The position numbers and the translations under genes are program-made. The notes beneath the pieces are model-generated. The model did no database searches. It was given only the letters and a program-made list of their open reading frames with translations, and was not told the origin of the DNA. 18,902 nt of DNA from a virus: positions 1 to 18,902 of the IMG/VR virus record IMGVR_UViG_3300029822_000436; one strand, given 5' to 3'. Positions 345 through 18,902 of this stretch are shown here, piece by piece; within the stretch, counting starts at the first letter, position 1; each line of letters starts with the position of its first letter.

Positions 345-382
345 TAATCACATTCTAGCATTCTCTAAAAAACTTTCCAATT

Positions 383-436
383 TTGTCAAACTTTTAATAG
401 AAAATGCTAGACTTTTGTTAATCACAATGATATACT
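383..436 (+). promoter_or_regulatory. Main early promoter region (two overlapping sigma-A-like promoters) for the 6-5-4-3-2 operon
   Basis: The first is TTGTCA (383-388), a 19-nt spacer, then TGcTAGACT (405-413). The second is TAGACT (408-413) as a -35, a 17-nt spacer, then extended -10 TGaTATACT (428-436). The predicted start is near 443, about 50 nt before the ATG at 493. Confidence 0.55.
389..419. promoter_or_regulatory. Candidate p4 operator: AACTTTTA-15 bp-CTTTTGTT
   Basis: The 8-15-8 geometry and outer AAC/GTT triplets match the phi29 p4 site AACTTTTT-N15-AAAATGTT (recalled). It overlaps the -35 and -10 elements of the early promoters. Confidence 0.4.
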
Positions 437-492: not shown

Positions 493-768
493 ATGCGTAA
501 AAAGATGACGAAAGAAGTTACAAAAACAACAATCAAAATTGCAAAGGTTCAAAATGTCGATGGACAACTAACAACGGAACAGCTTGACGACATTATCATG
601 ATTGGTAATGTTTCTGCTGAAAAAGCTCAAAAGCATGTTCATAAAGAACTTGGTACAAATGCAACAGTTTTCGGTGTTGAAGTTTCAACGGAAGTTTATG
701 AAATGGATGTTGAAGAATTTATCAAATACGCAACATTAAAGCAAGATACAAAATCTGTTTCTGAATAA
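493..768 (+). CDS. gp6: p6-like histone-like dsDNA-binding protein (replication and transcription cofactor)
   Basis: First gene of the early operon, as in phi29 transcription order. The pattern ...TKTT..IAK....VDG....EQL.....GN.....AQ...VE..TEVYE..VE.F...AT matches my recollection of phi29 p6, and the size is similar (91 vs 104 aa). Confidence 0.6.
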   Translation: MRKKMTKEVTKTTIKIAKVQNVDGQLTTEQLDDIIMIGNVSAEKAQKHVHKELGTNATVFGVEVSTEVYEMDVEEFIKYATLKQDTKSVSE

Positions 769-886: not shown

Positions 887-1435
887 ATGACAAAAAACGT
901 AAACGTAGATACACAAACTGGTGAAATCATGGAAACACAATCAAACGAGCAATTTATCGCAACGCTTGAACAATCACGTGCAAACGTAGTTTCTGAAACT
1001 GCTGAATACATGGTGTTAAAAGATGCAAACGGCAAATTTTCTCGTAAAGCAAAATATCATGCATTTTCATCAATCAAAGCAGAAAATCGTGCTGACAAAC
1101 TTTGGTTACTAAACATCTTGGAAGGCGACGAAAGTTCGGGTTACGGCTTGAAAGACAACGTAGGTAAAGAAATCGTTGTTGAAAATATCATCTTCCGTCC
1201 TTATGACCGTATTGATGAAAACACAGGTGAATTTGAATACGGTGTCTTAACTTACTTAATCACACCGGAAAAAGAAGCTTATGTTACTTCTGCCAAATCT
1301 GTCTACTTTACATTAAAACAAATCATGGAACTGTTTGGTGAGCCGGGTTCTACGGATTGGGAAAATATCACTGTAAAAGTGGGCAAGCAAAAAATGACTA
1401 ACGGTGACGCAATTAACATCAAAATGATTGGATAA
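887..1435 (+). CDS. gp5: p5-like single-stranded DNA-binding protein (longer than phi29 p5)
   Basis: It lies between the p6-like and p4 genes. The C-terminal 95 aa loosely follow the phi29 p5 pattern (I..N.I..Y...D..G...E..V.T....Y..S.K.V.....VKV). RBS AAAAGGGG is present. The assignment rests mainly on synteny. Confidence 0.5.
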   Translation: MTKNVNVDTQTGEIMETQSNEQFIATLEQSRANVVSETAEYMVLKDANGKFSRKAKYHAFSSIKAENRADKLWLLNILEGDESSGYGLKDNVGKEIVVENIIFRPYDRIDENTGEFEYGVLTYLITPEKEAYVTSAKSVYFTLKQIMELFGEPGSTDWENITVKVGKQKMTNGDAINIKMIG

Positions 1436-1447
1436 GGGGTGGCTTAT

Positions 1448-1828
1448 ATGCCTTCAACAATTCGGGGCATTTATCACAACTTAAAAGAAAGTGAATACAC
1501 GGTTTCTGATTCGGAAATCGTGTTTTTCTTTTCTTCTAAACTGTATTGTGATAAATTTCTAAAAGAGTACGAGGAACATAGAGATGTATTTTTAAATAAG
1601 ATGTATCGGTTAACAGGTGAAATTCCATTAAACATGACAACCCTTGCTGACATTACATTGTACAGAAGGATTGAAAAACGTGGATTCCGTGCATTATTAA
1701 AAGGGGTGGATATTACATGGCAAGACCTAAACGTTTACGCATTGCGAAAAATGATGTTAGTGAATACAAACGATTGGCAAAGAATACCCAAGCCAAAATT
1801 AACAGAACGTTTAAAAATTATGGAATAG
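1448..1828 (+). CDS. gp4: p4 late-transcription activator and early repressor
   Basis: MPSTIRGIYHNLKESEY..FFFSS.LY..KFL....LADIT.Y...EKRGF...LKG...TW....VYALR matches recalled phi29 p4 (MPKTQRGIYHNLKESEY..FFFSSELYLNKFL). The DNA-contacting Arg6 is conserved. I prefer the ATG at 1448 (RBS AAGGGGTGG, 1434-1442) to the GTG at 1439 in the ORF track. Confidence 0.85.
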   Translation: MPSTIRGIYHNLKESEYTVSDSEIVFFFSSKLYCDKFLKEYEEHRDVFLNKMYRLTGEIPLNMTTLADITLYRRIEKRGFRALLKGVDITWQDLNVYALRKMMLVNTNDWQRIPKPKLTERLKIME

Positions 1829-2499
1829 ATTTATCAAGTGAAATCAATGTTCCAAAATTAGAAGACTTCAAAACACGTAAAGAGTTTAACAGGTGGAAAG
1901 AAGAAGTTCGCGGTTTCACCAATCGTGCTAATACAAAATATCAATTCCAAAAGAACGAGTTCGGGGTTGTTGCAAGTAAAAGGGAAATCAATGAAGCAAA
2001 GCGAGCGACCAAACTCGCACAAAATTTAGCTAAACGTTTACAAAAAGAAACAGCTAAAAAACCGTTAATCGTTAATGGTAAAAAAGAAGGAACACTAGGT
2101 CAGCGTATGCAACAAATGGGAAAACCTAGTGTTGACGGGATACACGTTCCAAAAGATTTCGACTTTGATAAAATCCGTACACGTGAACAATTTGACTTGA
2201 AATCAGAAAGCATGAACAAACGGTCACAACCCGATTATTTGGACAAGCGACAGGTTGCCATGAAAGAAAACTATATTAAAATGTTAGCTGAAAACTATAA
2301 TTCAGACGGTGACGAATTAATAGAAGAAATTAAAAAGATAAACCCGTCCGATTTCTTTGAATTGTTTTTGATGCATGAAGAATTGCAATTTGACTTTGAA
2401 TACACAGAAGAACAAACGGAAGCAAATTTACAAAAGAAACTCTCTATCATTGAAAGTTACAAAGAGGGTAAAATAAATATGGACTTAAAGGGGTTTTGA
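1717..2499 (+). CDS. gp3: Terminal protein (primer for DNA replication)
   Basis: The N-terminus MARPKRLRIAKNDVSEYKRLAKNTQAKINRT.KNYGIDLSSEI and the C-terminus ...DLKGF are collinear with recalled phi29 TP (MARSPRIRIKDNDKAEYARLVKNTKAKIARTKKKYGVDLTAEI......SLKGF). It is 260 vs 266 aa and sits immediately upstream of the polymerase. Confidence 0.93.
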   Translation: MARPKRLRIAKNDVSEYKRLAKNTQAKINRTFKNYGIDLSSEINVPKLEDFKTRKEFNRWKEEVRGFTNRANTKYQFQKNEFGVVASKREINEAKRATKLAQNLAKRLQKETAKKPLIVNGKKEGTLGQRMQQMGKPSVDGIHVPKDFDFDKIRTREQFDLKSESMNKRSQPDYLDKRQVAMKENYIKMLAENYNSDGDELIEEIKKINPSDFFELFLMHEELQFDFEYTEEQTEANLQKKLSIIESYKEGKINMDLKGF

Positions 2500-2538: not shown

Positions 2539-4278
2539 ATGGCACGGAAAAAATTCAGTTGCGACTTTGAAACAACAACAAAAATAGATGATTGTCGTGT
2601 GTGGGCTTATGGTTATATGCAGATAGGCAAAAAGTCAAATTACAAAATAGGGAACAGTATGGACGAATTTATGGAATGGGTGGAATTGGTTAAGTCGGAT
2701 TTATATTTCCACAATCTAAAATTCGATGGTTCATTTATTGTCAATTGGTTATTAAAAAATGGTTACGAGTATTCAGAAACACCAACAGCAAAAACGTTCA
2801 AAACAACCATATCAAGTATGGGGCAATGGTACATCATTGATATATGTTACGGTTTCAAAGGCAAACAAAAACTTCATTCCGTGATATACGACAGTTTAAA
2901 AAAGCTACCGTTTCCAGTAAAAAAGATTGCAGTTGATTTTAAGTTGCCGATATTAAAAGGCGATATTGATTATCACACCGAACGACCTATTGGGCATGTT
3001 ATTACAGAAGAAGAATATCAATACATTAAAAACGATATTGAAATCATTGCCGATGCATTGGAAATTCAATTCAAACAAGGTTTAGAAAAAATGACAAATG
3101 GTTCGGATAGTTTAACCGATTTAAAAAACATTATGTCAAAGAAAATGTTCGAAAAACATTTTCCAGTTTTCAGCTTGAAAATGGATAACGAGGTTCGGCT
3201 TGCATATCGTGGAGGGTTCACGTGGTTAAACGACATACATAAAAATAAAGTTGTTAATGAAGGTATGGTATTTGACGTAAATAGTCTATACCCTTCCGTT
3301 ATGTATAATCGTTTATTACCTTATGGATTCCCGATATATTTTGAAGGTGAATATAAAGAGGATGAAAGTTATCCGTTATATATACAAAAAATACGTTGTG
3401 AATTTTATTTAAAAGAAAACAAAATACCGACAATACAGATTAAAGGCGACGACAGGTTTAAAGGAACTGAGTATTTAAAAAACAGCAAAGGTGAAACAGT
3501 CGAGTTAGTTGTATCAAATGTCGACTTGAAACTAATTCAAGATAACTATGATTTATATGATATTGAATATTTGGGCGGTTGGAAATTCAAAGGGAAATCC
3601 GGTTTGTTTAAGGATTTCATTGACAAATGGACGTATGTAAAAATCAACAATGACGGTGCTGTTAAGGCGCTTGCAAAATTAATGTTGAATGCTTTATACG
3701 GAAAGTTCGCAACAAACCCGGATATAACAGGTAAAATCCCATACTTAAAAGATGATGGTTCATTAGGTTTCAAAATGGGAGATGAAGAATTCAAAGAACC
3801 TGTCTACACGCCAATGGGTGTATTTATAACATCATACGCTCGGGAACTGACAATTAGAACTGCTCAAAGTTGTTATGATAGAATTATTTATTGTGATACA
3901 GACAGTATTCATTTAACAGGTACTAATATTCCAGATTCTATTAAACATTTAATTCATGACGATAATTTAGGAATGTGGCAACATGAAAGCACGTTCAAGC
4001 GGGCAAAGTATATCAGACAAAAAACATATATCCAAGAATTATACGAAAGACAAAACACAAAAGGCAAATGGATAGGTGCTGGCAAAACAAATTATGAACG
4101 TTTGAAAACTTCCGTCAAGTGTGCGGGTATGCCGGATAATGTCAAAAAATTAGTAACATTCGATAACTTTGAAATCGGGTTTTCCGCACCTGGAAAATTA
4201 GTTCCAAAACAAGTTGATGGTGGCGTTGTATTAGTCGACAGTATTTTTACAATCAAAGAAGGAGGTTTAATATGGTAG
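2539..4278 (+). CDS. gp2: Protein-primed family B DNA polymerase
   Basis: Exo motifs are CDFETTT, HNLKFDGSFIVNWL and YIKNDIEII. Pol motifs are FDVNSLYPS, KLMLNALYGKF and YCDTDSIH. It is collinear with phi29 DNA polymerase along its whole length (579 vs 575 aa). Confidence 0.98.
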   Translation: MARKKFSCDFETTTKIDDCRVWAYGYMQIGKKSNYKIGNSMDEFMEWVELVKSDLYFHNLKFDGSFIVNWLLKNGYEYSETPTAKTFKTTISSMGQWYIIDICYGFKGKQKLHSVIYDSLKKLPFPVKKIAVDFKLPILKGDIDYHTERPIGHVITEEEYQYIKNDIEIIADALEIQFKQGLEKMTNGSDSLTDLKNIMSKKMFEKHFPVFSLKMDNEVRLAYRGGFTWLNDIHKNKVVNEGMVFDVNSLYPSVMYNRLLPYGFPIYFEGEYKEDESYPLYIQKIRCEFYLKENKIPTIQIKGDDRFKGTEYLKNSKGETVELVVSNVDLKLIQDNYDLYDIEYLGGWKFKGKSGLFKDFIDKWTYVKINNDGAVKALAKLMLNALYGKFATNPDITGKIPYLKDDGSLGFKMGDEEFKEPVYTPMGVFITSYARELTIRTAQSCYDRIIYCDTDSIHLTGTNIPDSIKHLIHDDNLGMWQHESTFKRAKYIRQKTYIQELYERQNTKGKWIGAGKTNYERLKTSVKCAGMPDNVKKLVTFDNFEIGFSAPGKLVPKQVDGGVVLVDSIFTIKEGGLIW

Positions 4279-4451: not shown

Positions 4452-4620
4452 TAGGTGGTTGGTTACATTCACATGTGAAAAAGAGGATAGTACATTCTAT
4501 CAAGTAGCAAACGAGGTTGATAGTTTAGTAAAAGTTTCACGGTTGATTCTATCATTTCAACCAAAGAAAAACAGCAAACTAGTTCAAATCAACATTGATG
4601 ATATATTAACATTATTTTGA
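4444..4620 (+). CDS. 58-aa hypothetical early protein, not in the ORF track
   Basis: RBS GGAGGG (4431-4436) lies 7 nt upstream of the ATG. It overlaps the previous ORF by 8 nt. Translation is MRNRWLVTFTCEKEDSTFYQVANEVDSLVKVSRLILSFQPKKNSKLVQINIDDILTLF. Confidence 0.5.
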   Translation: MRNRWLVTFTCEKEDSTFYQVANEVDSLVKVSRLILSFQPKKNSKLVQINIDDILTLF

Positions 4621-4645
4621 CAAATACATAGGATAGTGCTATACT
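4617..4645 (+). promoter_or_regulatory. Near-consensus sigma-A promoter driving the pRNA (phi29 A1 analogue)
   Basis: TTGACA (4617-4622), a 17-nt spacer, then extended -10 TGcTATACT (4637-4645). The predicted start is about 4651-4653. Confidence 0.8.
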
Positions 4646-4651
4646 TATCTA

Positions 4652-4871
4652 TATGAGGGGTAGCACTTCCTATAACATTTAGTCTGTTGGGTTTATCCGC
4701 ATTGAGTTGCGCCAACACTTTTGGTAGGTGATTCCTATTAGTGTTACAAGTGTCTATTACTTCATACACTCAAAACCATCCAAAAGCCCAAAAGCTATAA
4801 CGGATGGTTTTACTAATTTATCCTCATAAATTTAACATATGGAATAGGGATGGTTACCCTATTCTTTTTTT
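4652..4871 (+). ncRNA. pRNA: Packaging RNA (pRNA): core domain I about 4652-4767, plus a 3' domain II ending at the terminator
   Basis: There is direct similarity to recalled phi29 pRNA. GGUAGCACUUCC matches GGUACUUCC, and UGUUGGG...CCAACA matches UGUUGGGG...CCCACA. The hairpin CGCA-UUGAGU-UGCG (4698-4711) matches phi29 CUGA-UUGAGU-UCAG, with an identical loop and covarying stem. A 5'/3' helix joins 4652-4666 to 4750-4766, and a D-like hairpin lies at 4723-4739. No convincing ORF is present. Confidence 0.85.
4842..4871 (+). terminator. Rho-independent terminator ending the early/pRNA transcripts and insulating the late operon
   Basis: Stem GAATAGGG/CCCTATTC (4842-4849 and 4857-4864), a 7-nt loop, then seven T residues (4865-4871). 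Confidence 0.85.
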
Positions 4872-4889
4872 GTGTTCAAAAACAACTAT

Positions 4890-4903
4890 GTTTCACGTGA
4901 AAC
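4890..4903. promoter_or_regulatory. Perfect 14-bp palindrome GTTTCACGTGAAAC (candidate operator)
   Basis: The sequence is exactly self-complementary and is centred about 100 bp upstream of the predicted late start. The 16-mer ATGTTTCACGTGAAAC recurs at 17495-17510. Confidence 0.4.
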
Positions 4904-4931
4904 AAAAAATAGAAAAATAACAATTTTTGTT
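4901..4931. promoter_or_regulatory. Candidate p4 activator site: AACAAAAA-15 bp-TTTTTGTT
   Basis: A perfect 8-bp inverted repeat with a 15-bp spacer and outer AAC/GTT, as in the phi29 p4 site. Its centre (4916) is about 80-82 bp upstream of the predicted late start. phi29 p4 site 3 is centred at -82 of promoter A3. Confidence 0.5.
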
Positions 4932-4982
4932 CTATTAATTTCATTTGTGAACCGGATAATGAGTGTAGGATGTTAGACTAGA

Positions 4983-4991
4983 TGGTATAAT
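4983..4991 (+). promoter_or_regulatory. Late promoter (A3 analogue): extended -10 without a recognisable -35
   Basis: TGgTATAAT at 4983-4991. The -35 position (4963-4968, GTGTAG) is poor. The predicted start is about 4996-4998, some 35 nt before the gene 7 ATG. Confidence 0.65.
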
Positions 4992-5032
4992 AAGAATGTA
5001 AGATATTATTAAAACAGGAAGGATGTTGCAAA

Positions 5033-5335
5033 ATGCCAATGAGCAAGGAAGAACATGAAGCGTTACTAAATGAGTTACTAGGAGCAGACGTAGAACAATC
5101 AAGACGTACAGAAATCTTACAACAGCTACGAACTGATTACGGTACTGTCCACGCTGATTTCGAAAACATCACAACAAACAATCAAAAGTTACAAGCGAAT
5201 AATGACGACTTGATTATTTCAAATAGTCAATTGTTCCGACAGTTGGGTGTTGTTGGTGGTAATCAAGAAATGCAAAAACAGGAAGAACAGAAAACGTTTT
5301 CCGAAACAGTAACAATTGAAGCACTTGAAAAATAA
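5033..5335 (+). CDS. gp7: Head scaffolding protein
   Basis: MPMSKEEHEALLNELL....ILQQLR..YG......DDLIISNSQLFRQLG....ETVTIEALEK is collinear with recalled phi29 p7 (MPLKPEEHEDILNKLL...ALQQLR...DDLIVSNSKLFRQIG...ETITIEDLEAK). Confidence 0.9.
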   Translation: MPMSKEEHEALLNELLGADVEQSRRTEILQQLRTDYGTVHADFENITTNNQKLQANNDDLIISNSQLFRQLGVVGGNQEMQKQEEQKTFSETVTIEALEK

Positions 5336-5359
5336 TAACCGAAATGGAGAGAAAAAATT

Positions 5360-6685
5360 ATGACACGTATTACCTTTAAAGATGTAAGTACAAGTTTAGG
5401 TGTTAATGAATCCTACGACATTGTAAATGCTATTCGAAATTCAAATCCAAACTTTGCAAACTATGTACCACTTGCAACAGCAGAAAACGTTGCAGAAGTT
5501 GGTGCGGGTATTCTTATCAATCAAACAATTCAAAATGAATTTATCACATCATTGGTTGACCGTATCGGCTTGGTTGTTATTCGCAATGTATCGTTAAACA
5601 ACCCATTGAAAAAATTCAAAAAGGGACAAATGCCATTAGGTCGTACCATTGAAGAAATTTTCACTGATATTACAAAGGGTAAAAAATACGACCCGGAAGG
5701 CGCAGAAGAAACAGTTTTCAAACGTGAAATTCCAAACGTAAAAACTTTATTCCATGAACGAAACCGACAAGACTTTTATGAACAAACAATTCAAGATGAT
5801 TCATTAAAAACCGCATTCGTTTCATGGAGGCATTTTGAATCATTCATTTCTTCTGTAATTAATGCGATTTACAACAGTGCAGAGGTTGAAGAATATGAGT
5901 ACATGAAATTACTTGTTGACAACTACTTTGCAAAAGGATTATTTACAGTCGTAAAAGTCGACAAGCCTGATACAGAAACAGCAGCACGAAACTTTGTTAA
6001 AAAATTGCGTGCAACAGCGACAAAATTAACGTTACCAACAGGCTCACGTGATTTCAACTCATTAGCAGTTCGCACACGTTCGGATGTAAACGACTTACAT
6101 TTAATCATTGATGCTGACCTGAATGCTGAAATGGATGTTGAAGTTCTAGCACGTGCGTTCAATATGAACAAAACGGATTTCATCGGAAATGTTACAGTAA
6201 TTGACGGATTTTCTAGTACAGGTCTTGAAGCGGTTTTAGTGGACAAAGAGTGGTTCATGGTTTATGACAACTTGATGAAACTTGAAACCATCCGAAATCC
6301 GAAAGGTCTTTACTGGAATTATTTCTACCACGTTTGGCAAACACTTTCAGTTTCACGTTTTGCAAATGCAGTTGCGTTCGTTTCGGGTGACATTGCCCCT
6401 GTTACACAAGTGATTGTTGACCCAACAATTTTGGCATTACGTCAAGGTCGTTCATTTACATTCACGGCATATGTTCGTGAAAATGACAATGCGGGGCGTG
6501 AAGCGGTTTGGTCGGTTGAAGGCATGAATGGAACAGTAGTTGCATCGGGAACAACAATTGATGAAGGTACGCTAACAGTTGGCGATACACAGACAGGACA
6601 ATTGATGGTAAAAGCAACCGTAACATACGGTGAGGTTGATACGGAGACGGAAGTTGTTGGAGAATCAATCGTTACCATCGTATAG
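5360..6685 (+). CDS. gp8: Major capsid protein with C-terminal Ig-like (BIG2-type) domain
   Basis: Position and size match phi29 gp8 (441 vs 448 aa). The C-terminal 90 aa ([16 protein letters not shown]...VWSVEG...TGQL.VKATV) look like a bacterial Ig-like group 2 domain, as in phi29 gp8. Confidence 0.88.
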
Positions 6686-6701
6686 AAAGGATTGATTTTA
6701 C

Positions 6702-8465
6702 ATGACTGTTCCATTGAGTGGAACGGACATTCGACTTTTGTCGGGTGTCCAATTCTCAAATGATTATAAAAATACGAGATGGTTTGACACAAAAAGTGAA
6801 CAAACCACACACTTTTTAGCAAGACCACGAATACAGTCCATTAGTCAAGTGAATTTTCAACGCATTGAAGGACGACATTTCTTTTCATCAAATGCAAGCA
6901 TTGATGAGCTATGGGGTGCAAACTATTTCATGTTTAAAAATCCATCATCTCATAGTGATAAATGGTTTTATGCATTTGTAACGGAACTGGAATATGTACG
7001 TAAAAATGTAACACATGTTCATTTTGAAATTGATGTGTTGCAAACATGGATGTTTGATATGAACTTCAAACCGTCTTATATTGTTCGTGAACATTGCGAC
7101 TTATATAAAACAGATGGAACACCTGTCATTAACACAGTTGAAGAAGGTCTAAATTATGGAACTGATTACGACATAGTAAGTGCAGAACATTTTAAACCAC
7201 CAAACGACTTGTATTATTTGGTTATTGTGACGAAATCTTTGATTCATAAAGAAGGCGATGCAGTTGCAAACGATATAAAAGCAAGTGTTGTCGGTATACC
7301 ACAACCACTATGTTATTATGTTCACCCTATCCGTAAAGATGGAACAAGCCCAAACGTTTCAATTGGTGGGTCAACAGTCAACTTAACAGATATGACAGAA
7401 CTACTATCAAATATCTACTCACAAGATGATGCAGTTGACAACATTGTTTCATTGTTTATCACGGAACATATTGGGTATACACCAACAGGTGGTTCGGGGT
7501 TTGACTTTGATTCAGATATATTCTCAAAAGCAATGATTGCAGACGATGTCAATCAAAATATTGACACAATCTATGTCAAAGAAATACGGGAATTTTTACC
7601 ACACGTTATCAATTGCGGTCGTAAATATGATGGGTTTAAAGAGGTTCGTGAATCAAAACTTTTAATGTATCCTTATTGTGTAACCATTTTAGATGATTTT
7701 AAAGGGAATCAATTCGAAATTAAAAACGAGTACCTTGACAGTGAAAATTTAAATGTTTCCGTTAGGGGTTCATTGGGTGTTTCAAATAAAGTCGCTTATA
7801 CAGTGTCTGCATATTTAACAGGACAATCGGGACTTTCAAGCGATGAAAAAATGCGCATCAATTTAGGTCAAGGTTTTATTAATACAAACCCACAAGACAT
7901 TCCCATTATTACGGACATGCTTTCCGCTTTCCTGCAAGGGAATCGAAACAGCATTGAAAACCAACAAAATTCTATTATGTGGAATGGTGCAATGAATGCA
8001 ATCGGCGGTGCTATTGGTGGTGCAACCACGGGTGGTGTTGCGGGTGCTGTAACTGGTGTTGTTGGTGGGGCGGGAAATACTGTTTTACAACTACAAGGCA
8101 TTCAAGCCAAACAAACCGACATAAATAATACACCCCCACAATTGGTTAAAATGGGTGGTAATACGTCTTTTGATTTTGGTAACGGGTATACCGGGTTTTA
8201 CGTAATCAAAAAACAGATTAAAAATGAATACATCAAAAAGCTATCTGACTTCTTTATGATGTATGGTTACAAAGTGAATGAGGTAAAAGTACCAAATTTC
8301 CACACTAGAAAATCATACAATTTTGTTCAAACGGCAACATGTAATATAACAGGGAACTTCAACAATGACGATTTACAGAAGTTAAAAAGTGTGTTTGATA
8401 ATGGTATCACATTATGGCATGTGAATGACATTGGAAACTATGAACTAGAAAACGGGGTGATATAA
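6702..8465 (+). CDS. gp9: Tail knob (distal tube) protein
   Basis: The N-terminus [26 protein letters not shown]...[12 protein letters not shown]....[16 protein letters not shown] matches recalled phi29 gp9. A Gly-rich membrane-active loop ([24 protein letters not shown]) is present. It is 587 vs 599 aa. Confidence 0.92.
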
Positions 8466-9361
8466 TGGCACGAAAACGGAGGGGTTATCAAAATCCAAAC
8501 CAATTACAAGCACAGGAAGGCAATACTTGGTATCAACATTATTTCCAATATTTAAACTCATTAGCCTATCAATTATTTGAATGGAAAAACCTTCCTGATA
8601 GTATCGACCCACGTTATCTTGAAATGTCGTTGAATATGTTCGGTTATGTTGGATTCTTTAAAGATAAAAGTTTGGGGTACATTGCAACACAGGGTGCACC
8701 ATCCGGTAGGGTTGACCATTACTTATTACCTGATACATTCCATGCAGTTTCACCAACTTACAATCACACATTCAAGTTATTTAATTATAACGATATTAAA
8801 ACAGATAACATGGGCGTTATCATTTGGAATAATGACTACCATTTCCCAACAACACCTTCACTATCTTTGTTTGCAAAAGAATTAGCGGAAACACAGGAAG
8901 TTATCAGTGTCAATCGTAATGCACAAAAGACACCTGTTTTATTATCAGCAAACGATAACACGAAATTCAGTATTCAAAACATCTATAATCAGTATGAAGG
9001 GAATGCACCTGTTATTATCACACATGAGGATATTGACCCTGAAACAATAAAGGTGTTCAAAACGGATGCACCGTATGTTGTCGATAAGTTAAGAACCGAC
9101 CGTGATAAAATATGGAATGAAATCATGACCTATTTAGGTATCAAAAATGCTAACCTTGAAAAGAAAGAACGGATGGTGACTAGCGAGGTCAACAGCAATG
9201 ACGAACAAATCACGGCTAGTGGAAACATCTTTTTAAAATCAAGACAGGAGGCATGTAAGAAAATTAATGACTTGTACGGGTTAAATATTGAAGTCGATTT
9301 TAGGGTTGAAACGATTGAACAAATGCAATCACAAGTTAAGGGTGAAGGAGGTGAAAATTAA
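8465..9361 (+). CDS. gp10: Head-tail connector (portal, upper collar)
   Basis: [81 protein letters not shown] and the other segments are collinear with phi29 gp10. The start overlaps the gp9 stop (TAATG). Confidence 0.95.
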
Positions 9362-10638
9362 TGGCATCGTATACCATGCAGTTGCGGGAATATATTGAGA
9401 GTTATTCACAAGACAATGAAATGCTTTCCAATCGTGACCGAATTAAAATAGGGCGTGAAAAATTATTCGATTTTGAATATCCTATATTTGACAAAGATTA
9501 TAAAGCGGTTTTTGAAACAAATTTTATCCGTAATTTTTACATGCGGGAAATAGGGTTTGAATCAGAGGGATTATTCAAGTTTCAATTGGAAACATGGTTG
9601 TTAATTAATATGCCTTACTATAACAAGTTATTTGAAAGTGAATTAATCAAATTCAATCCACTTGAAAGTTATAGTTTGAAAACAACCTATCAAAAGAAAA
9701 ATGATGTGAAGCAAGACGAAAATAGAAACCGCACTCAAAACGACAATAAAATAATTGAACAAAACGACAAAACGAAAAATAATGAAAACGAAGTTCAAAA
9801 CAATATTCAAACGGATAGTACAAGCCGAACACAAAATGATAAGTCAAATAAAACTCAAATTGATGATAGAGATATTATCCAAAATGATGAAACGAATTTA
9901 TCACAAAACGGTAATACCACAACAGATACAACTAATTCAAACAATGAAACAACAAACCGTGAATCAACAGTTGACAGTGAATCAAATACAGAAAACAAAG
10001 TTGACCGTGAAAACAAAGGAAAGTCAACCGAAACAACAGATGATTTCAGCAGACAGATTGACAGTGATACACCTGATACACGTTTGCAGTTAACAGCAAA
10101 AGACGGTGAGGGTGCAATCGAATACGCTAGTAAAATTACTGAAAATACGGACAACGACAAGAAAACCGCAACTTCAGAAAGCACGGAAAAACAAAACGAA
10201 ACTTCGGACAGCACATCATTAGTGACTACCAAAGAGGACGGGTCAACAAGTAATGAAGGTGATTCACATTCCGATACAAAAGTTGTCAATGATGAACAAG
10301 GCACGTTAACAAGTACAATTGGCGATAAACTAGTGAGTGATACAACAGATACTTTTACAAGTAATATCAAAGAGGATTTCACTACTAGTCAAAACAACCA
10401 AAAGAACAACACAACAGACGGTTCATTGGAAAGTAAAATTAACGACAACTTGACAAGCGATGTAAAGGATTCATCGGTTTCTACAATCAACGATATTGAA
10501 GATTATATCGAAGAAAAAGTAGGTAGTATCGGTGTCAAAACTTACTCTGAAATGATAATGGAATATCGTGAATCATTGTTGCGAATTGAAAAACAGATTT
10601 TTAAAGAAATGAACGAACTATTTATGCTCGTTTATTAG
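9361..10638 (+). CDS. gp11: Lower collar protein with a greatly expanded low-complexity central region
   Basis: The N-terminus (YTMQLREYIE...KLFDFEYPIFD..YK.VFETNFIRNFYMREIGFESEGLFKFQLETWLLINMPYYNKLFESELIKFNPLE) and the C-terminus (EDYIEEKVG.....Y..MIMEYRESLLRIEKQIFKEMNELFMLVY) match phi29 gp11. It is 425 vs 293 aa because of an N/T/D/S/E/Q-rich insert. Confidence 0.92.
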   Translation: MASYTMQLREYIESYSQDNEMLSNRDRIKIGREKLFDFEYPIFDKDYKAVFETNFIRNFYMREIGFESEGLFKFQLETWLLINMPYYNKLFESELIKFNPLESYSLKTTYQKKNDVKQDENRNRTQNDNKIIEQNDKTKNNENEVQNNIQTDSTSRTQNDKSNKTQIDDRDIIQNDETNLSQNGNTTTDTTNSNNETTNRESTVDSESNTENKVDRENKGKSTETTDDFSRQIDSDTPDTRLQLTAKDGEGAIEYASKITENTDNDKKTATSESTEKQNETSDSTSLVTTKEDGSTSNEGDSHSDTKVVNDEQGTLTSTIGDKLVSDTTDTFTSNIKEDFTTSQNNQKNNTTDGSLESKINDNLTSDVKDSSVSTINDIEDYIEEKVGSIGVKTYSEMIMEYRESLLRIEKQIFKEMNELFMLVY

Positions 10639-10648
10639 GAGGGTTAAC

Positions 10649-11986
10649 ATGGATAAACCGAATTTTACAAAATCACCGCAAATACCCATGATGCGGATTC
10701 AAGGGTATGAACGTTATTTACCTTCTGCATTTGATGAAAGTCTATCCATTTTACAAAAGATTAATAAAGTCATTTATCAATTAAACAATATCGGTTTAAT
10801 TACAAATGATTTAATCAAAAAATGGAATGAATTAATGGAATGGATTGTTGGTAATGGGTTGACTGAAATCGTTAGTGACGAAATCGACAAACGAATTGCA
10901 GATGGTACATTTGACGAATTAATCTATCGTATTGTAGGCGATTTAACAACACTAACAACATCAGAAAAAGATAATCTAGTAGGTGCGATAAATGAAATTA
11001 ATAAAATCGCAACCGATAATAAAACAGCTATTGGAGACATTTCAGAACTAACAACAGATGAAAAAGAAAATCTTGTTCTTGCTATCAATGAATTGAAAGC
11101 ATTCACAGACATTAATAAACAAGCTGTTATCACAATCGGTGAAGCGACAGGATTCGGTGTTATTAGTGGGTTGAAAGTTGTACAACAAAAAGTATTGTCG
11201 ATGGGTGTTGATGTTGGTGATTTGACTACACCTAACATTGTTCATCTACCAAACGGTGAGCGATATACCCTGACAAGTATTGCTATTCCCATTGCGGAAT
11301 CGCATAACACGTTAAACCGTTACGACATTATCTTTGTAAACAGTCAAGGTAAAATCGAGTACAAAGAGGGTATTTTGGCAATCGACCCACGTCCACCTGT
11401 ACTTCCCGATAATTCGGTTTTACTCGCTGAGATATTTGTTCAAGCGAATGATACAACAATTAATAATGTTGACATTATCGACAAACGACCAATCAAAACT
11501 TTAAACGATTTGAAAACGCAAAAGAAGGATAATTTTGTACAATCGATTAATGAATTAGTTGATTCGATCGCAACGGTTAGAATTGAACTAGATGAACTGG
11601 AATCAACAACGGCTACAAATATTGCAGACGCTATTGCAGAAGTTACAGAAAATTTCATGACAAATTTAAACGATTTAGAGGAACGTTTTGGAATAGAGTT
11701 GGCAGACGTTGAAACAGGTTTAAATCAATTGATTGGAAATCTTACACTTTTATCGACAGATATTAAGACTGATATCGTATCAGCTATTAATGAGTTAGTT
11801 CAAGTGAACACTGGACAAAATTTACTCATTACACAAAACGCAAATAAATTAATTGTAAGTACGACAAAACCAACAACACAGAAAGATGGTGACATTTGGT
11901 ATCAAACAAGCACTGAAAATTTACCACCATTATTAACAAATACCATCACAGTAAGTCCTACAATGGGGTTAAAATTAGAGGAGTGA
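10649..11986 (+). CDS. Tail fibre/appendage protein with repeated (D/E)xLVxAINEL motifs
   Basis: It sits in the structural operon between gp11 and the gp12-like spike. Repeats are EKDNLVGAINEINK, EKENLVLAINELKA, KDNFVQSINELVD and KTDIVSAINELVQ, plus a coiled-coil-like composition. There is no phi29 counterpart at this position. Confidence 0.6.
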   Translation: MDKPNFTKSPQIPMMRIQGYERYLPSAFDESLSILQKINKVIYQLNNIGLITNDLIKKWNELMEWIVGNGLTEIVSDEIDKRIADGTFDELIYRIVGDLTTLTTSEKDNLVGAINEINKIATDNKTAIGDISELTTDEKENLVLAINELKAFTDINKQAVITIGEATGFGVISGLKVVQQKVLSMGVDVGDLTTPNIVHLPNGERYTLTSIAIPIAESHNTLNRYDIIFVNSQGKIEYKEGILAIDPRPPVLPDNSVLLAEIFVQANDTTINNVDIIDKRPIKTLNDLKTQKKDNFVQSINELVDSIATVRIELDELESTTATNIADAIAEVTENFMTNLNDLEERFGIELADVETGLNQLIGNLTLLSTDIKTDIVSAINELVQVNTGQNLLITQNANKLIVSTTKPTTQKDGDIWYQTSTENLPPLLTNTITVSPTMGLKLEE

Positions 11987-11990
11987 TAAA

Positions 11991-13901
11991 ATGGCTAATT
12001 TAAGAAAAGCTAGAGCGCAATTAATAAGTGGTGAAAACGGTGAGAATGTTGAGGATGTGGATATTCTCACTTCTGCTGACGCTGTTTCCTTTTCAGATGG
12101 TAGAAAATTAACAGAAGTTGAAACAACAATTACTCAGCAATTGGCACAAACTGCAACGCAACCCGTAAGAAATTTAGCATATGGTGATGTTAATGTTGCC
12201 GGTAAAAACATTAGTCGTACAATCGTAACTTTTATCTCGGACGACGGCTTTATAGAAGATTACACAAAACTGAAACCCATATTTGAAGCCGAGAGAGTTC
12301 CATTTTCTCCAGCAATCGTAAGTGATTGGGTTGGAAATTCTCGTTGCATGAGCGTTTCGCAGATTAAAGAAATCGAGAATATGGGTTGTGAAATTTTAGG
12401 GCACACTAAAACTCATCCCGAACTAGGTACACTTACGGAAGCACAACTCGAAAAGGAGCTGAAAGAGTCAAAATCCGCTTTAAAATCAATGGGTTTCGAT
12501 GTGAACCACATTGTATATCCTTACGGAAGTTACAGTAATTTAGTAAAGAAAATTGCACGCAAATATTACCGATCAGGCTATTTGTTTGGCAACACAGCAC
12601 AGACTAACTCTCAACCGTATGACACTTACGCTATTAAACGAATTGCACTAGGTTCTTATTTTGACCGACCATCTTCCGAGTTTCCTGTAACCAATACTTT
12701 CAATGATTATTATAAGCCGATGGTGGACAAGGCTGTTGCCAATAAAGAATGGCTAATTATTACATTACATCCGGGGGCATCAAACGGAGAATTTACGGCA
12801 GAACAACAAGGTTATTTGACGCAAACAATCCAGTACATCAAGTCACTTAATATCCCCATCAAAAACCCGACTGACGTTCTAAACGAACTGGGTAACTTGA
12901 TTGATGTTGTGGGATATACCGAAACCAATCAAGAAATCCCTTTCAAAATAGGAGCTAACGGAAAATTAGTTTCAACAGGAATAACTCAATCGGCAACAAT
13001 AATATTGAATGCTAATGAAAGAAATGCTATGTCGAAGGAATCCGATTTCGAACCGGGATATGTTACACATGTATTGGTTTCTTCTGCTAATGCATCTGGC
13101 ACACCTAACGGCAAAGGTGGTGTATTAGTCACAAATAGAACGATTCAAGCGAAAATGGGACTTACAGGAAACTTAACTACACAGACCTTTTATGAAATTT
13201 CACCATCAACAGGTGTTAGTGGCAAGGTGTATGTAAGGACTGCATCGGCGGGTGTGGATTATCCGTGGGGGCAATGGGAGGTAATTAACGAAAATAAATC
13301 CAATAGACTGACTGATAACCAATTGCCATCAAACACCCCACCAACAGGATTTCCAACGGGTAAAACAACAAGTCAAACATTCAATTCGTCCGGCAATAAA
13401 AGTGATTTACCTAATTTATCTTCGGGGACACTTCACACTTTTAGACATGAGACTGCCGCCTATAACGATTTCGCTTACCAAGTTTTTTACGCAGTGGATG
13501 GGAATATATACACTAGAAGGCACAGCGTAGGAGGAGCTTGGGGAGGTTGGCGAAAAGTAGTTACGGCAAGTGTTGATGGTTATTTTGATAATTTGAAAAA
13601 TAAAGGCGTAGTGGTAAATGAACAAAAAACATCTGCGCCATCTACATCGTCTATCAGCGTTGCAAATAAAAGTCGGATTGTGTTAAATACCGTAACCAAT
13701 AACGTAATCAACAATTTAATTGATGGAGTAGAGGGTCAAGAAATTATTCTGTTGAATACGAGCGGGCAGTCGATTACCTTAAAGCACTTAGCAAATGCAA
13801 ATGATGGATTTATAAACCTGGAAGGAGCTACCGATTACGTTTTAAAAGAGTTTAAGCCGATTAAATTAATTAAGTTTACAAACTCTTGGTACGTATTCTG
13901 A
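11991..13901 (+). CDS. Tail fibre / receptor-binding protein carrying a CE4 (NodB) polysaccharide deacetylase domain and two knob-like C-terminal repeats
   Basis: The fibre-type N-terminus is DILTSADAVSFSDGRKLTEV. NodB motifs are FISDDG (D84, D85), HTKTH (H138, H142), VYPYGS and IITLHPG. Two repeats of the G.L......Q.FY......Y.R......W..W..V type lie at about aa 376-432 and 479-524. Confidence 0.7.
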   Translation: MANLRKARAQLISGENGENVEDVDILTSADAVSFSDGRKLTEVETTITQQLAQTATQPVRNLAYGDVNVAGKNISRTIVTFISDDGFIEDYTKLKPIFEAERVPFSPAIVSDWVGNSRCMSVSQIKEIENMGCEILGHTKTHPELGTLTEAQLEKELKESKSALKSMGFDVNHIVYPYGSYSNLVKKIARKYYRSGYLFGNTAQTNSQPYDTYAIKRIALGSYFDRPSSEFPVTNTFNDYYKPMVDKAVANKEWLIITLHPGASNGEFTAEQQGYLTQTIQYIKSLNIPIKNPTDVLNELGNLIDVVGYTETNQEIPFKIGANGKLVSTGITQSATIILNANERNAMSKESDFEPGYVTHVLVSSANASGTPNGKGGVLVTNRTIQAKMGLTGNLTTQTFYEISPSTGVSGKVYVRTASAGVDYPWGQWEVINENKSNRLTDNQLPSNTPPTGFPTGKTTSQTFNSSGNKSDLPNLSSGTLHTFRHETAAYNDFAYQVFYAVDGNIYTRRHSVGGAWGGWRKVVTASVDGYFDNLKNKGVVVNEQKTSAPSTSSISVANKSRIVLNTVTNNVINNLIDGVEGQEIILLNTSGQSITLKHLANANDGFINLEGATDYVLKEFKPIKLIKFTNSWYVF

Positions 13902-13946
13902 GTTATAGTTCCAAATTGTGTAGCAGTAAAAAAGGAGATGTTGTAA

Positions 13947-15644
13947 ATGGATGTTATTAATAATTTAAGAATAAGACAAAAAGTGGGTGATAAATACAAT
14001 GTATTATTACCCGAAACTTCTTTGCAACAAGTACAAGACTTAACAACAGGGAAAAGACTATCAGAAATCATTGGAACACTTGACAACCTAAACACGTTCG
14101 AAAAAGAATCAATTGTTAAAGCTATTAATGAAACATTGATTGAAGTAGAAAATGTTTCGAATAAAGTGGGGAATCTTGATGAGCTGAATACGATTATAAA
14201 ATCGAATACAGTTGTCGCCATCAATGAAATTATCAACCGTCTCGAAAACTTAGGAGAATCAGATTACTCAAAAGTCACAAAAGGTGAGTTTGCTATCAAC
14301 GTAAAAGATTACGGTGCAAAGGGTGACGGTGTAACAGTTGATACACAGGCATTCAAAGATGCAATAGCGGTAGCCAAAACAAAAGGGAAAATGTTATACA
14401 TCCCAACAGGGGTTTATTGGACAGACAGTTTGACCATTCCAAGTGGTATGACAATTCAAGGTGACGGTATCACTAAAACAATTTTAAAACTTGTTGCAAA
14501 TTCAACAGACGCATTACTTGTTATTACAGAACAAAATGATGTGACATTACGAGGGTTTACCGTTGACGGAAATTCTCAAAATCATGTTGCGGGTTCAACT
14601 ATCATTTTTTGGAAATCAAGACGCAATATGGTCGATAATATCAAGGTGGTCAATTCAGCAACAATTGGTTTGAACATGTCAAACGTTACGGATAGTAGAA
14701 TCCAAAATTCACATTTTGATGGGACAACGGAAAACTGCGTAGTCTCATTCAGCAATGACAATCAAGAATATTCAATTGGGAATAATACCGTTGTAAATAA
14801 TATCATGGAAAACGGTGCATTGGATGGTATCATTTATAACACAATCGGTGGAATCATTACAGACAACGTTTTCTTAAACAATGGTAAACGTCAAGGATGG
14901 ACGGCGGGTGGTGTGTATGCCAATAACAAATACTATCTAACGATTGCGAACAATTTAATCATTGGAAACAACGGAAACGGGGTTGACTTGATTGATTGCG
15001 GTAATTCGATTGTAACAGGTAACTCATGTCGTGATAATAATTCGGCGGGTATCATGTTTGCAAACTGTAAAAATAGTAATATCGAAAATAACGTATGTGT
15101 AAACAACGGCGTTCAACCTGCCGTTGACCAAGATGATGGAATTACAATCTTAGGCGGTTCACAACTTATTATTTCCGGGAATCGTTGTTTTGACGGTAAG
15201 ACAGTACGAACTCAAACACACGGTATTCACTTACTAGATAATGCTAATAACATCATCATTGCAAATAATTTATGCACGGATAACAAAGAAAATGATGGCA
15301 TCAAACTGGAATCAACGACAAGCGATATTTTACGCAGTGCGAATAAACCGATGCCGTCAGACCTACCAAGTGAAATGAATATCCTGTTCAATTTAACAGA
15401 AGGACAATCCAAAACACTGATTGGAAATAAACGAATTTCAATCATCGAATTGGTTGACAAAAGTTTGAGGGCATATGCAAAAATATTTGTTCGTGGAACT
15501 GACAACACATTCACGGTGTTAGAAAGTCCGGTGTCAGGAATGGAAACAGAAAACACATTTAGTTTCGTTGGTGATAACTTTACTATAACAAATAATCGTG
15601 CGGGGACTGCGTACTATTCCTATCGCATAACATATGTGGATTAG
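13947..15644 (+). CDS. gp12: Pre-neck appendage / tailspike with pectin-lyase-fold right-handed beta-helix (gp12-like, shorter)
   Basis: INVKDYGAKGDGVTVDTQAFKDAI.....LYIP.G.Y is the classic N-cap of Pectate_lyase_3-type beta-helix proteins. Repetitive N.G/NN.. rungs follow (IANNLIIGNNGNGVDL, VTGNSCRDNNSAGI, IENNVCVNNG, ISGNRCFDG, IANNLCTDN). The N-terminus again has xIVKAINE and xVVAINEI motifs. It is 565 vs 854 aa in phi29, and no C-terminal autochaperone is recognisable. Confidence 0.75.
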   Translation: MDVINNLRIRQKVGDKYNVLLPETSLQQVQDLTTGKRLSEIIGTLDNLNTFEKESIVKAINETLIEVENVSNKVGNLDELNTIIKSNTVVAINEIINRLENLGESDYSKVTKGEFAINVKDYGAKGDGVTVDTQAFKDAIAVAKTKGKMLYIPTGVYWTDSLTIPSGMTIQGDGITKTILKLVANSTDALLVITEQNDVTLRGFTVDGNSQNHVAGSTIIFWKSRRNMVDNIKVVNSATIGLNMSNVTDSRIQNSHFDGTTENCVVSFSNDNQEYSIGNNTVVNNIMENGALDGIIYNTIGGIITDNVFLNNGKRQGWTAGGVYANNKYYLTIANNLIIGNNGNGVDLIDCGNSIVTGNSCRDNNSAGIMFANCKNSNIENNVCVNNGVQPAVDQDDGITILGGSQLIISGNRCFDGKTVRTQTHGIHLLDNANNIIIANNLCTDNKENDGIKLESTTSDILRSANKPMPSDLPSEMNILFNLTEGQSKTLIGNKRISIIELVDKSLRAYAKIFVRGTDNTFTVLESPVSGMETENTFSFVGDNFTITNNRAGTAYYSYRITYVD

Positions 15645-15654
15645 GTGATATAAA

Positions 15655-16767
15655 ATGGTAGTTGTAGCAAATAGATTTTTAACCTTAGAAGAAATGACAA
15701 TTAATGCGGAATATATTCTTTCCGCATTACTTTCAAAAGGATGGTCAAAAAATGCGGTTGCCGGTATGTTAGGTAACATGCAGACCGAAAGTACCATTAA
15801 CCCCGGAATTTGGCAAGACCTTGCAGAAGGTCGTTTGGACTTAGGGTTCGGGTTAGTACAATGGACACCCGCTAGTAAGTATACAAATTGGGCTGATTCA
15901 AAGGGGTATCAGTGGACAGATATAGAAGGACAATTGGAACGTTTACAATATGAGATAGACAACAATATCCAATGGATACCAACAGTTGATTATCCTATGT
16001 CGTTCAACGAATTTAAAACGTCAACCGAAACACCCGAATATTTGGCGCAGGTATTTTTACGAAATTATGAACGACCCAACGACCAAAATCAGCCAGACCG
16101 TAGCACACAAGCTCGTTATTGGTTTGAAAATTTAACGGGAACGGGTGGACAACCCTGTTTACAGTTGGCACAATTCCCAATGGATATGATACGCATTACA
16201 CAAGGAGAGAATGGGCAATATTCACACATGGGAATCCTCGCAATAGATTTCGTGGGTTCACACAACCAATACCCATATTATGCCCCATGTGATTGTGAAT
16301 GTGTTGCATCCTTCAATGACGTTGCAGTTTGGCGGTCAACACATGAGGTCATGTGTGCGGATGGACAGAAACGAAAAATATTTTGGTCTTGTATCCATGA
16401 AGTGCCATTGTCTCATACAGAAGGAACATTATTGATGAAAGGCGAACTCATGGGACATACAGGTGTTGGTGGTACAGCAACAGGTGACCATTTACATTTG
16501 CAAGTTATGTTGGGTGACGAATATTTGGGGTTTACACGTAACGCACAAGGGGCATCTACATTAGTAGGAACTGAACTACACATTTATGATGTGTTTTCCG
16601 TGGGTGGTGTGGATATTGTAGACGGTTACGGGTATCCGTGGAAGATTAGTGATTATGTCGATTGTAGCGAGGGTGGCGGTGGTGAGAATCCTAAGCCACC
16701 TATAAAGAGAAATAATGTAATCATAAAACTTCTATTATGTGATGCACTAAACGGTTGGAAATACTGA
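15655..16767 (+). CDS. gp13: Tail-associated peptidoglycan hydrolase (N-terminal lysozyme-like domain plus M23 metallopeptidase)
   Basis: N-terminal GWSKNAVAGMLGNMQTESTINPGIWQ...GFGLVQWTP is the phage tail lysozyme motif. The C-terminal half has M23/LytM signatures (H..G.LAIDF ... GDHLHLQV). Position and size (370 vs 365 aa) match phi29 gp13. Confidence 0.88.
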   Translation: MVVVANRFLTLEEMTINAEYILSALLSKGWSKNAVAGMLGNMQTESTINPGIWQDLAEGRLDLGFGLVQWTPASKYTNWADSKGYQWTDIEGQLERLQYEIDNNIQWIPTVDYPMSFNEFKTSTETPEYLAQVFLRNYERPNDQNQPDRSTQARYWFENLTGTGGQPCLQLAQFPMDMIRITQGENGQYSHMGILAIDFVGSHNQYPYYAPCDCECVASFNDVAVWRSTHEVMCADGQKRKIFWSCIHEVPLSHTEGTLLMKGELMGHTGVGGTATGDHLHLQVMLGDEYLGFTRNAQGASTLVGTELHIYDVFSVGGVDIVDGYGYPWKISDYVDCSEGGGGENPKPPIKRNNVIIKLLLCDALNGWKY

Positions 16768-16801
16768 ATGTTGATGTGAATAAAATTAGGAGTTGATAAA
16801 A

Positions 16802-17032
16802 ATGAAGGTAATGTTGGACAAAATGGAGGTGTATGTCCTAGTGTCACATTTAATCATTACGTTAGCAATAATTGGGGTGTACTGCTACACACTAATAACA
16901 GGGCAAGGGGACGAAACTCTTAAAACGATTTTGACTGTAATTGTCGGTTATTGGTTCGGTTCAATGGGTGTGAATGCAATTAAACCTGCTAACCAAAACA
17001 ACATTGAAACATCAAAGGAGGTTGAAAAGTAA
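16802..17032 (+). CDS. Putative holin (two predicted TM helices)
   Basis: It lies immediately upstream of, and overlapping, the endolysin start. Hydrophobic stretches are VLVSHLIITLAIIGVYCYTLI and ILTVIVGYWFGSMGV, and the C-terminus is charged. RBS AGGAG (16788-16792) favours the ATG at 16802 over the TTG at 16793. It is much shorter than phi29 gp14 (76 vs 131 aa). Confidence 0.7.
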   Translation: MKVMLDKMEVYVLVSHLIITLAIIGVYCYTLITGQGDETLKTILTVIVGYWFGSMGVNAIKPANQNNIETSKEVEK

Positions 17033-17730: not shown

Positions 17731-17743
17731 AGGATGATGGAAA

Positions 17744-18742: not shown

Positions 18743-18766
18743 TCTCTCTTTTGAGAGACTTTTTTG
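18741..18766 (+). terminator. Rho-independent terminator of the late operon
   Basis: Stem AGTCTCTC/GAGAGACT (18741-18748 and 18753-18760), loop TTTT, then TTTTTGTT. It overlaps the gp16 stop codon. Confidence 0.85.
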
Positions 18767-18813
18767 TTGTTATTTGTGTGTAACATTATTGCTTGAATAA
18801 TGCAAGGATAAAT

Positions 18814-18902
18814 TGCACGAAAGTTTGTGTGGAAATGTGCTTGACAAATGGTTAAATATTGTGTTTGGGGAAATGAGGGGAAATGTGCGTGGTATATATT
18901 AC
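18814..18902. repeat. Right inverted terminal repeat (ITR-R) and origin of protein-primed replication
   Basis: Mirror image of 1-89. 18840-18902 is a perfect reverse complement of 1-63. Confidence 0.95.

Follow-up and report, generated by a model that had tools for sequence, protein, structure and literature searches.

A putative phi29-type p4 site 3 and late promoter lying 4.5 kb from the early p4 sites in a phage genome with an apparently inverted left arm

The early-to-late switch of phage phi29 is a textbook system in which one nucleoprotein complex represses two promoters and activates a third, with p6 acting as the partner of p4. Phi29 p4 binds sites with the consensus CTTTTT-15 bp-AAAATG; its sole base-specific contact is made by Arg6 to the G at +/-13, while Thr4 and Tyr33 grip the external A-tracts and Lys51 and Arg54 grip the central A/T tract, of which positions 0 to +2 are critical (PMC3100819). 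The late promoter A3 of phi29 needs p4 despite its extended -10. In this phage, the divergent early promoter A2b has its -35 overlapped by site 3, and 98 bp separate this site from site 1 at A2c, so that a single p4-p6 hairpin couples repression with activation. For the related phage Nf, binding of p4 to site 3 (by footprint) and p4-dependent recruitment of RNA polymerase have been shown experimentally (PMC2731898). An inverted left early region is not in itself new, having been published for Harambe and BeachBum (Harambevirus) in PMC6266182 and PMC9965433, whose retrieved passages contain no analysis of p4 sites. Here we describe the virus record IMGVR_UViG_3300029822_000436, whose whole stretch of 18,902 bp (the window) is a linear Salasmaviridae (phi29-like podovirus) genome, complete or nearly so, of a phi29-like Bacillus phage, and in particular an inverted repeat at 4901-4931 and the promoter between it and gene 7. 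The repeat is probably the orthologue of phi29 p4 site 3, and the sequence at 4983-4991 an A3-type late promoter. The local anatomy appears to be that of an ordinary member of the phi29 A3/p4 family, and the genomic wiring appears to be new and independently evolved, with a layout that has a precedent in Harambe and BeachBum. The late promoter region comprises the following features.

4901-4931, no strand assigned: putative p4 site, orthologue of phi29 site 3, AACAAAAA-N15-TTTTTGTT, centre 4916
4963-4968, plus strand: GTGTAG at the -35 position with 17-bp spacing, matching TTGACA at three of six positions and effectively no -35
4983-4991, plus strand: extended -10 TGGTATAAT (TGgTATAAT) of the late A3-like promoter, the same as in phi29 A3
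4996-4998, plus strand: predicted late transcription start, placed from the -10 and calibrated on phi29 DNA
5033-5335, plus strand: gene 7, which encodes the scaffolding protein and opens the late operon

The repeat was located correctly in every coordinate by a preliminary description of this DNA, which reported a perfect 8-bp inverted repeat centred at 4916: AACAAAAA occupies 4901-4908 and TTTTTGTT 4924-4931, on either side of the 15-bp spacer ATAGAAAAATAACAA at 4909-4923. Counted from the centre, C4903 stands at -13 and G4929 at +13, the ends read AAC...GTT, the external tracts at +/-8 to +/-12 consist of A/T only (AAAAA and TTTTT), and a central AAAAAT runs from -3 to +2 with A/T pairs at 0 to +2; the structural rules for a phi29 p4 site all hold for this sequence. 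Phi29 site 3 is likewise 31 bp long; it too ends in AAC...GTT and has C/G at +/-13, a spacer of 15 bp, and an A/T tract in the centre. The promoters are also alike in having an identical extended -10 TGGTATAAT, a poor -35, and a position directly upstream of gene 7. A promoter scan of 4646-5032 returned zero sigma-70-type -35/-10 pairs, in agreement with the earlier statement that the sole good -10 before gene 7 is an extended one that lacks a -35. The motif TGNTATAAT is present in two copies only in the 18.9 kb; the second, at 8458-8466 (TGATATAAT), falls where the tail-knob gene meets the connector gene (connector start 8465); it may be a late promoter internal to the operon or simply a match by chance.

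The spacing between site and promoter is also that of phi29. When the start site is placed 7 nt past the hexamer (4998), the centre of the site lies at -82, with a range of about -80 to -82, and the literature distance for phi29 p4 site 3 at A3 is -82. In place of this value we used a direct measurement: from the centre of the repeat down to the opening base of the -10 hexamer is 70 bp (4986 - 4916), and the same measurement on phi29 DNA, from the centre of site 3 (AACTTTTTGCAAGACTTTTTTATAAAATGTT) down to the initial T of the A3 TATAAT, likewise gives 70 bp. The distance given in the preliminary description therefore stands. A role of the repeat as an RNA hairpin or terminator was ruled out, because as RNA it forms no stable hairpin (-3.8 kcal/mol, z -1.06) and folds no better than shuffled sequences, which makes it a feature of the DNA. 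An A2b-like promoter was not found on the minus strand at 4901-4931. At its distal edge, the site overlaps TGTTTCACGTGAAACA, a perfect palindrome of 16 bp at 4889-4904.

Relatives were gathered via p4, and each was anchored on the extended -10 upstream of gene 7. Of 33 non-identical relatives, 21 have a C-W5-N15-W5-G site (one mismatch allowed) at 69-70 bp, and the offset is exactly 70 bp in the window, phi29, Gxv1, B103, BeachBum, Harambe, and L016, the nearest relative of the window. The compound signature, an extended -10 that has a C-W5-N15-W5-G site 68-71 bp upstream of it, is present in a single copy in the window, counting both strands, and likewise in phi29 and in BeachBum, always at the late promoter. 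The same signature was not found in L060, a distant collinear metagenome-assembled genome, which was ruled out as a further example of the layout with the site, since both the site and the promoter signature are absent.

Together with these similarities, several observations weigh against assigning 4901-4931 to p4. A full-site matrix derived from the relatives leaves it outside the top 8 in the window, where the early site at 389-419 ranks first; this failure is due to an unusual proximal half, the promoter-proximal TTTTTG deviating from the family consensus AAAATG. A half-site matrix puts 4901-4931 second to third and 389-419 fourth to fifth, both within the range of random genomes. The p4-site motif carries little information, and 4901-4931 is not singled out by sequence alone. 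Scans of metagenome and genome contigs for p4 gave 25+3 loci, none closer than 71%, and no relative above 71% p4 identity was found that would show the exact site after the inversion discussed below. In addition, the perfect extended -10 could give appreciable p4-independent transcription. Because the motif is weak when taken by itself, the case for a site 3 orthologue rests on exact positional conservation and on the presence of a cognate p4. The top match of the half-site matrix, AACATTTTCCAGTTTTCAGCTTGAAAATGGA at 3155-3185, lies inside the DNA polymerase gene; with a motif that carries so little information, it has probably arisen by chance.

The p4 protein encoded in the window is 57% identical to that of phi29. 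In phi29, Arg120 of p4 is the contact to the alpha C-terminal domain of RNA polymerase. This residue is kept in the window, as are Thr4, Arg6, Tyr33, Lys51, and Arg54 (2FIO alignment and translation). With these residues kept, the site rules obeyed, and an offset common to phi29 and its relatives, the likeness to the activator-dependent A3 proposed in the preliminary description is well supported by sequence comparison. Position 5 of the N-terminal hook is Gln in phi29 and Ile in the window and is variable across the family; co-variation of this residue with half-site polarity was considered and rejected, as no pattern emerged. Both A/T tracts of the window site are reversed compared with phi29 (AACTTTTT...AAAATGTT), as had been noted, but this polarity is nothing special in the family. 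The promoter-distal half AACAAAA(A/T) is the commonest form in the family, its polarity being shared by the window, B103, and Nf, and L016/L041 has the identical site in a normal divergent switch; for both reasons, tract polarity is not tied to the split of the switch. Moreover, p4 binding in phi29 needs no intrinsically bent DNA (PMC3100819), so the remark on bending carries little weight. Across the family, p4 half-sites are thus free to carry their A/T tracts in either orientation, which fits recognition by one guanine contact and DNA deformability.

The window departs from phi29 in where the sites are placed. The elements upstream of site 3 are listed below.

357-387, no strand assigned: putative p4 site 2 orthologue with its core at C359...G385 and its centre at 372; the 32-bp distance to site 1 is that of phi29
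389-419, no strand assigned: putative p4 site 1 orthologue, AACTTTTA-N15-CTTTTGTT, centre 404, overlapping the early -35
408-436, plus strand: early A2c-like promoter TAGACT-17-TGaTATACT, driving p6-p5-p4-terminal protein-DNA polymerase (promoter scan; nucleotide homology to phi29 A2c)
4617-4645, plus strand: promoter of the prohead RNA (pRNA) gene, TTGACA-17-TGcTATACT (promoter scan)
4655-4768, plus strand: pRNA core (Rfam RF00044, 49.1 bits, E 4.8e-10)
4841-4865, plus strand: intrinsic terminator, end of the pRNA/early transcription unit, with a hairpin of -11.6 kcal/mol and then seven T in a row

Sites 1 and 2 and the early promoter lie at 357-436 and site 3 and the late promoter at 4901-4991, on the same strand, and site 1 is 4,512 bp from site 3, centre to centre. 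At this separation, the sites cannot join in the compact p4-p6 hairpin of phi29. The phi29 arrangement, with sites 1-4, A2c, A2b, and A3 together between divergent genes 6 and 7, is not found here; unlike phi29, the window has no divergent promoter at site 3 but a terminator and the pRNA gene upstream of it, has no Spo0A box between site and promoter, and has sites 1 and 2 about 4.5 kb off. The nearest relative by the DNA polymerase tree is L016/L041 (IMG/VR UViG_3300012973_000262; metagenome contig Ga0233369_1000442), which is about 69% identical to the window at the nucleotide level over the early and late genes. It carries the same AACAAAAA-N15-TTTTTGTT (CAAAAA-N15-TTTTTG), homologous base for base, 70 bp from a TGaTATAAT; in contrast to the window, its layout is the ordinary divergent one, with sites 3 and 1 about 74 bp apart between genes 7 and 6. 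By blastn against L041, the early genes and the pRNA of the window match +/+ and the late genes +/-. In a neighbour-joining tree of the DNA polymerase, the window is sister to L016, deep within a clade whose informative members all show the divergent arrangement of genes 6 and 7. Because the nearest relative is divergent and has the same site, the left arm was inverted in the lineage of the window, L016/L041 representing the arrangement before the inversion. The inverted segment runs from site 2 through the early genes and the pRNA to its terminator; one probable breakpoint separates sites 2 and 3, and the other falls between the left end and the terminator of the pRNA. The physical split of the activating and repressing sites, which the preliminary description had proposed, is, by the blastn comparison and the tree, both real and derived, and the early-to-late switch would, as was also proposed there, be wired differently.

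A motif TTTCAYGTGA recurs in the window at 335-344, 4889-4904, and 17495-17510, with five strand matches against 0.34 expected. The first two copies are at both of the inferred inversion junctions, where the motif could have served as the short inverted repeat for the flip of the left arm or could bind some dimeric regulator. The lysin gene contains the third copy, which also occurs in the endolysin gene of hmny2 and for this reason is probably just coding sequence. Phage PZA (NC_001423/M11813, L021) was considered as a third collinear example and rejected as an artefact of record joining: the left 5.2 kb of the record is joined reversed, with the terminus CTTACTTT internal at about 5190-5200, and the record begins inside the A2b-A3 region (1-60). 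PZA looks collinear because its pieces were joined in the wrong orientation, and automated synteny comparisons will wrongly show it as such.

The early end of the switch is conserved in its own right. Counted from the start codon of p6, the centres of sites 1 and 2 stand at -89 and -121 in the window as in phi29, within a gapless alignment of the two from -125 to -55 relative to that codon; the similarity of the early regions ends at about window 355-365. The putative repression site at 389-419 is present as first described and aligns as the orthologue of phi29 site 1, with 27 bp from its centre down to the early -10 hexamer in phi29 and BeachBum as well as in the window. On the other hand, the phi29 Spo0A boxes TGTCGAA at the A2c flanks read TGTCAAA or are absent at the aligned window positions (380-420), and the promoter regions ahead of genes 6 and 7 both lack a TGNCGAA box. 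On this basis, we rejected Spo0A boxes close to either promoter, and the sequence suggests a phage without the Spo0A-mediated shut-down of phi29.

Between the two halves of the switch lies the pRNA gene (4617-4870), which is internal, between the early and late operons, and not at a genome end. The gathering score of RF00044 is 100; the pRNA of the window scores below it and is seen only at an E-value threshold, a search of the window with Rfam at gathering thresholds giving zero matches. With a score of 49 bits, the pRNA gene would be overlooked by standard annotation. Its terminator at 4841-4865 lies 36 bp upstream of the 4901-4931 site and is predicted to insulate the late operon from upstream read-through.

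These elements suggest the following sequence of events. Host sigma-A RNA polymerase would transcribe the early operon from 408-436, giving p6, p5, p4, terminal protein, and DNA polymerase, and transcription from both the early-operon and the pRNA promoters would stop at the terminator at 4841-4865. A p4 dimer would then occupy 4901-4931, with Arg6 of each N-terminal hook reading the G at +/-13 (C4903/G4929) and Thr4, Tyr33, Lys51, and Arg54 holding the three deformable A/T tracts and bending the DNA. Arg120 would touch the alpha C-terminal domain and stabilise RNA polymerase on an extended -10 devoid of a -35, and late transcription of genes 7-16 would begin near 4998. On sites 1 and 2 (357-419), over the early -35, p4 would turn the early promoter down. 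On balance, we lean towards late activation and early repression by p4 being two independent modules, with neither a shared p4-p6 hairpin nor an A2b; bridging of both regions by p4 or p6 via a 4.5-kb loop is much less likely.

Other explanations of the late promoter region can be weighed against this model. It is unlikely, in our view, that the late operon is mainly p4-independent, transcribed from the extended -10 alone or by read-through past 4841-4865, with the repeat as an ancestral relic. TGnTATAAT promoters can function without a -35, and this one may work alone; the one-strand gene layout makes read-through physically possible, and the terminator stem has just 9 pairs, 4 of them G-C. 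Yet phi29 A3, with an identical TGGTATAAT, still needs p4, the perfect symmetry and the exact 70-bp offset argue for continued selection, and a terminator stands directly upstream of the site in both independent collinear lineages, the window and Harambevirus. We hold it to be rather less probable still that the A/T-rich repeat acts without p4, as curved DNA, as an UP-like element, or as a site for p6 or a host factor, even though its three A/T tracts are about one helical turn apart and the palindrome TGTTTCACGTGAAACA at 4889-4904, with its over-represented core TTTCAYGTGA, overlaps the distal edge. UP elements lie at about -40 to -60, whereas the repeat is at -67 to -97; the C/G at +/-13, the 27-bp span, and the offset equal those of the footprinted p4 sites of phi29 and Nf; and a complete p4 gene is present in the window.

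The remaining alternatives concern the layout and the repeat as such. That the collinear layout is an artefact of assembly or of the record, the site and the early promoters being truly adjacent as in phi29, has the falsely collinear public record of PZA, with CTTACTTT internal at about 5200, in its favour, but we regard it as highly improbable: inverted terminal repeats of 122 nt are present at both ends of the window with no internal terminal sequence, and the pRNA terminator runs into the site with no terminus-like sequence between them. Cultured Harambevirus phages share an equivalent layout (PMC6266182). Chance occurrence of an inverted repeat in an A/T-rich spacer is the least credible of these explanations, barely deserving weight. 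The late-promoter intergenic spacer is indeed 68% A+T, and C-W5-N15-W5-G shows no enrichment genome-wide (4 observed against 7.1 expected). Perfect 8-bp inverted repeats with a 15-bp spacer number two in the window (at 4901 and at 12040, the latter inside a gene), with a mean of 0.58 per first-order Markov genome; for the 412-bp intergenic region, the expectation is 0.018, and the repeat stands at the one offset used throughout the family and is homologous base for base to the L016 site.

All genes of the window are on one strand. The early genes follow the order p6-p5-p4-terminal protein-DNA polymerase on the plus strand, then two small open reading frames (ORFs) and the pRNA gene, and the late genes 7 to 16 span 5033-18742. 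The assigned early genes are given here.

493-768, plus strand: gene 6 (histone-like p6; PF17548 E 1.5e-14, phrog_6370 E 2e-23)
887-1435, plus strand: p5
1448-1828, plus strand: gene 4 (p4; Pfam PF05464 E 2e-51, PDB 2FIO E 6e-40)
1717-2499, plus strand: terminal protein
2539-4278, plus strand: DNA polymerase

The inverted terminal repeats are 90% complementary and occupy 1-122 and 18781-18902, and the terminal 16-mer has no further copy within the window beyond the two ends. Inverted terminal repeats of 6-16 bp are reported for phi29-like phages, and PMC6266182 terms 16 bp the longest. The start of the window, GTAATATATA, resembles the phi29 terminus AAAGTAAG minus AAA, and about three terminal bases may therefore be absent from the assembly. 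At the right end (18742-18902), gene 16, which ends at 18742, gives way to a bidirectional terminator at 18741-18760 and then to the terminal repeat; the right-hand early operon is absent from this segment, as are homologues of genes 17 or 16.7. A megablast comparison of the full window with 50,697 phage records found no near relative, the top match having 72% identity in the terminase gene only. An exact-protein look-up with gene 7 returned no record, and scans of metagenome and genome contigs with gene 7 gave zero relatives.

At the left end, a promoter-like TTGCTA-17-TGtTATCAT is found at 98-126, partly inside the terminal repeat. Downstream of it, a 37-codon ORF (154-267) with a strong ribosome-binding site encodes two Cys pairs, CPKC and CVDC, and is thus zinc-ribbon-like; it overlaps a mechanically listed minus-strand ORF at 197-361, and no homologue of it was found among the fetched loci. 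Within gene 4, 49-75 nt past the start codon, a terminator-like hairpin of 12 pairs followed by a T-run is found at 1497-1523. Its position matches that of the annotated TA1 terminator within Nf gene 4 (record 3720-3746), and an internal gene 4 attenuator appears to be conserved between the window and Nf.

Among described phages, Nf and B103 (Beecentumtrevirus) share with the window the CAAAA polarity of the distal half-site (AACAAAAT) but differ in their divergent layout, in their annotated A2b and A2c, and in a proximal half of AAAAG; Nf-type phages have the same arrangement but a 16-bp spacer. The closest parallel in layout is Harambevirus, where the early and late genes are also on one strand. 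There, the order is terminator, AACAAAGT-N15-AAAATGTT, and TGtTACAAT, with the same 70-bp offset, and a site-1-like sequence is found 27 bp upstream of the early -10 hexamer, so that the split is the same as in the window. On the other hand, Harambevirus is distant from the window (36% identity in the major capsid protein and 57% in the DNA polymerase) and basal in the tree, whereas the major capsid protein of the window is 82% identical to that of L004. Unlike the window, Harambevirus has a right-hand early operon, a 16-bp terminal repeat, and a pRNA candidate at the left end on the minus strand, which implies a different inverted segment. This candidate is a weak RF00044 match in BeachBum (L002, NC_049961) at 171-288 on the minus strand, directed towards the terminus (24.8 bits, E 0.0046); the genome announcement gives the pRNA as undetected in Harambe or BeachBum. 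The polymerase tree, the capsid identity, and the position of the pRNA all speak against shared descent of the layout, and because Harambevirus is distant and basal and has its pRNA placed differently, the inversion in the window is an independent event.

Together, these comparisons make the window a candidate natural dissection of the phi29 switch, in which activator, site geometry, and promoters are those of phi29 but 4.5 kb and a terminator separate the two halves. If this is true, the mechanical coupling seen in phi29 would be dispensable, since uncoupling has also arisen separately in Harambevirus, and the pRNA terminator would become the element that keeps the late genes off early in infection. 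The window and Harambevirus thus offer two independent lineages in which to ask whether the hairpin is needed for timing, whether site 3 alone is sufficient in vivo, and how read-through into the late genes is blocked, against the background of a phi29 switch in which repression and activation are joined in one hairpin.

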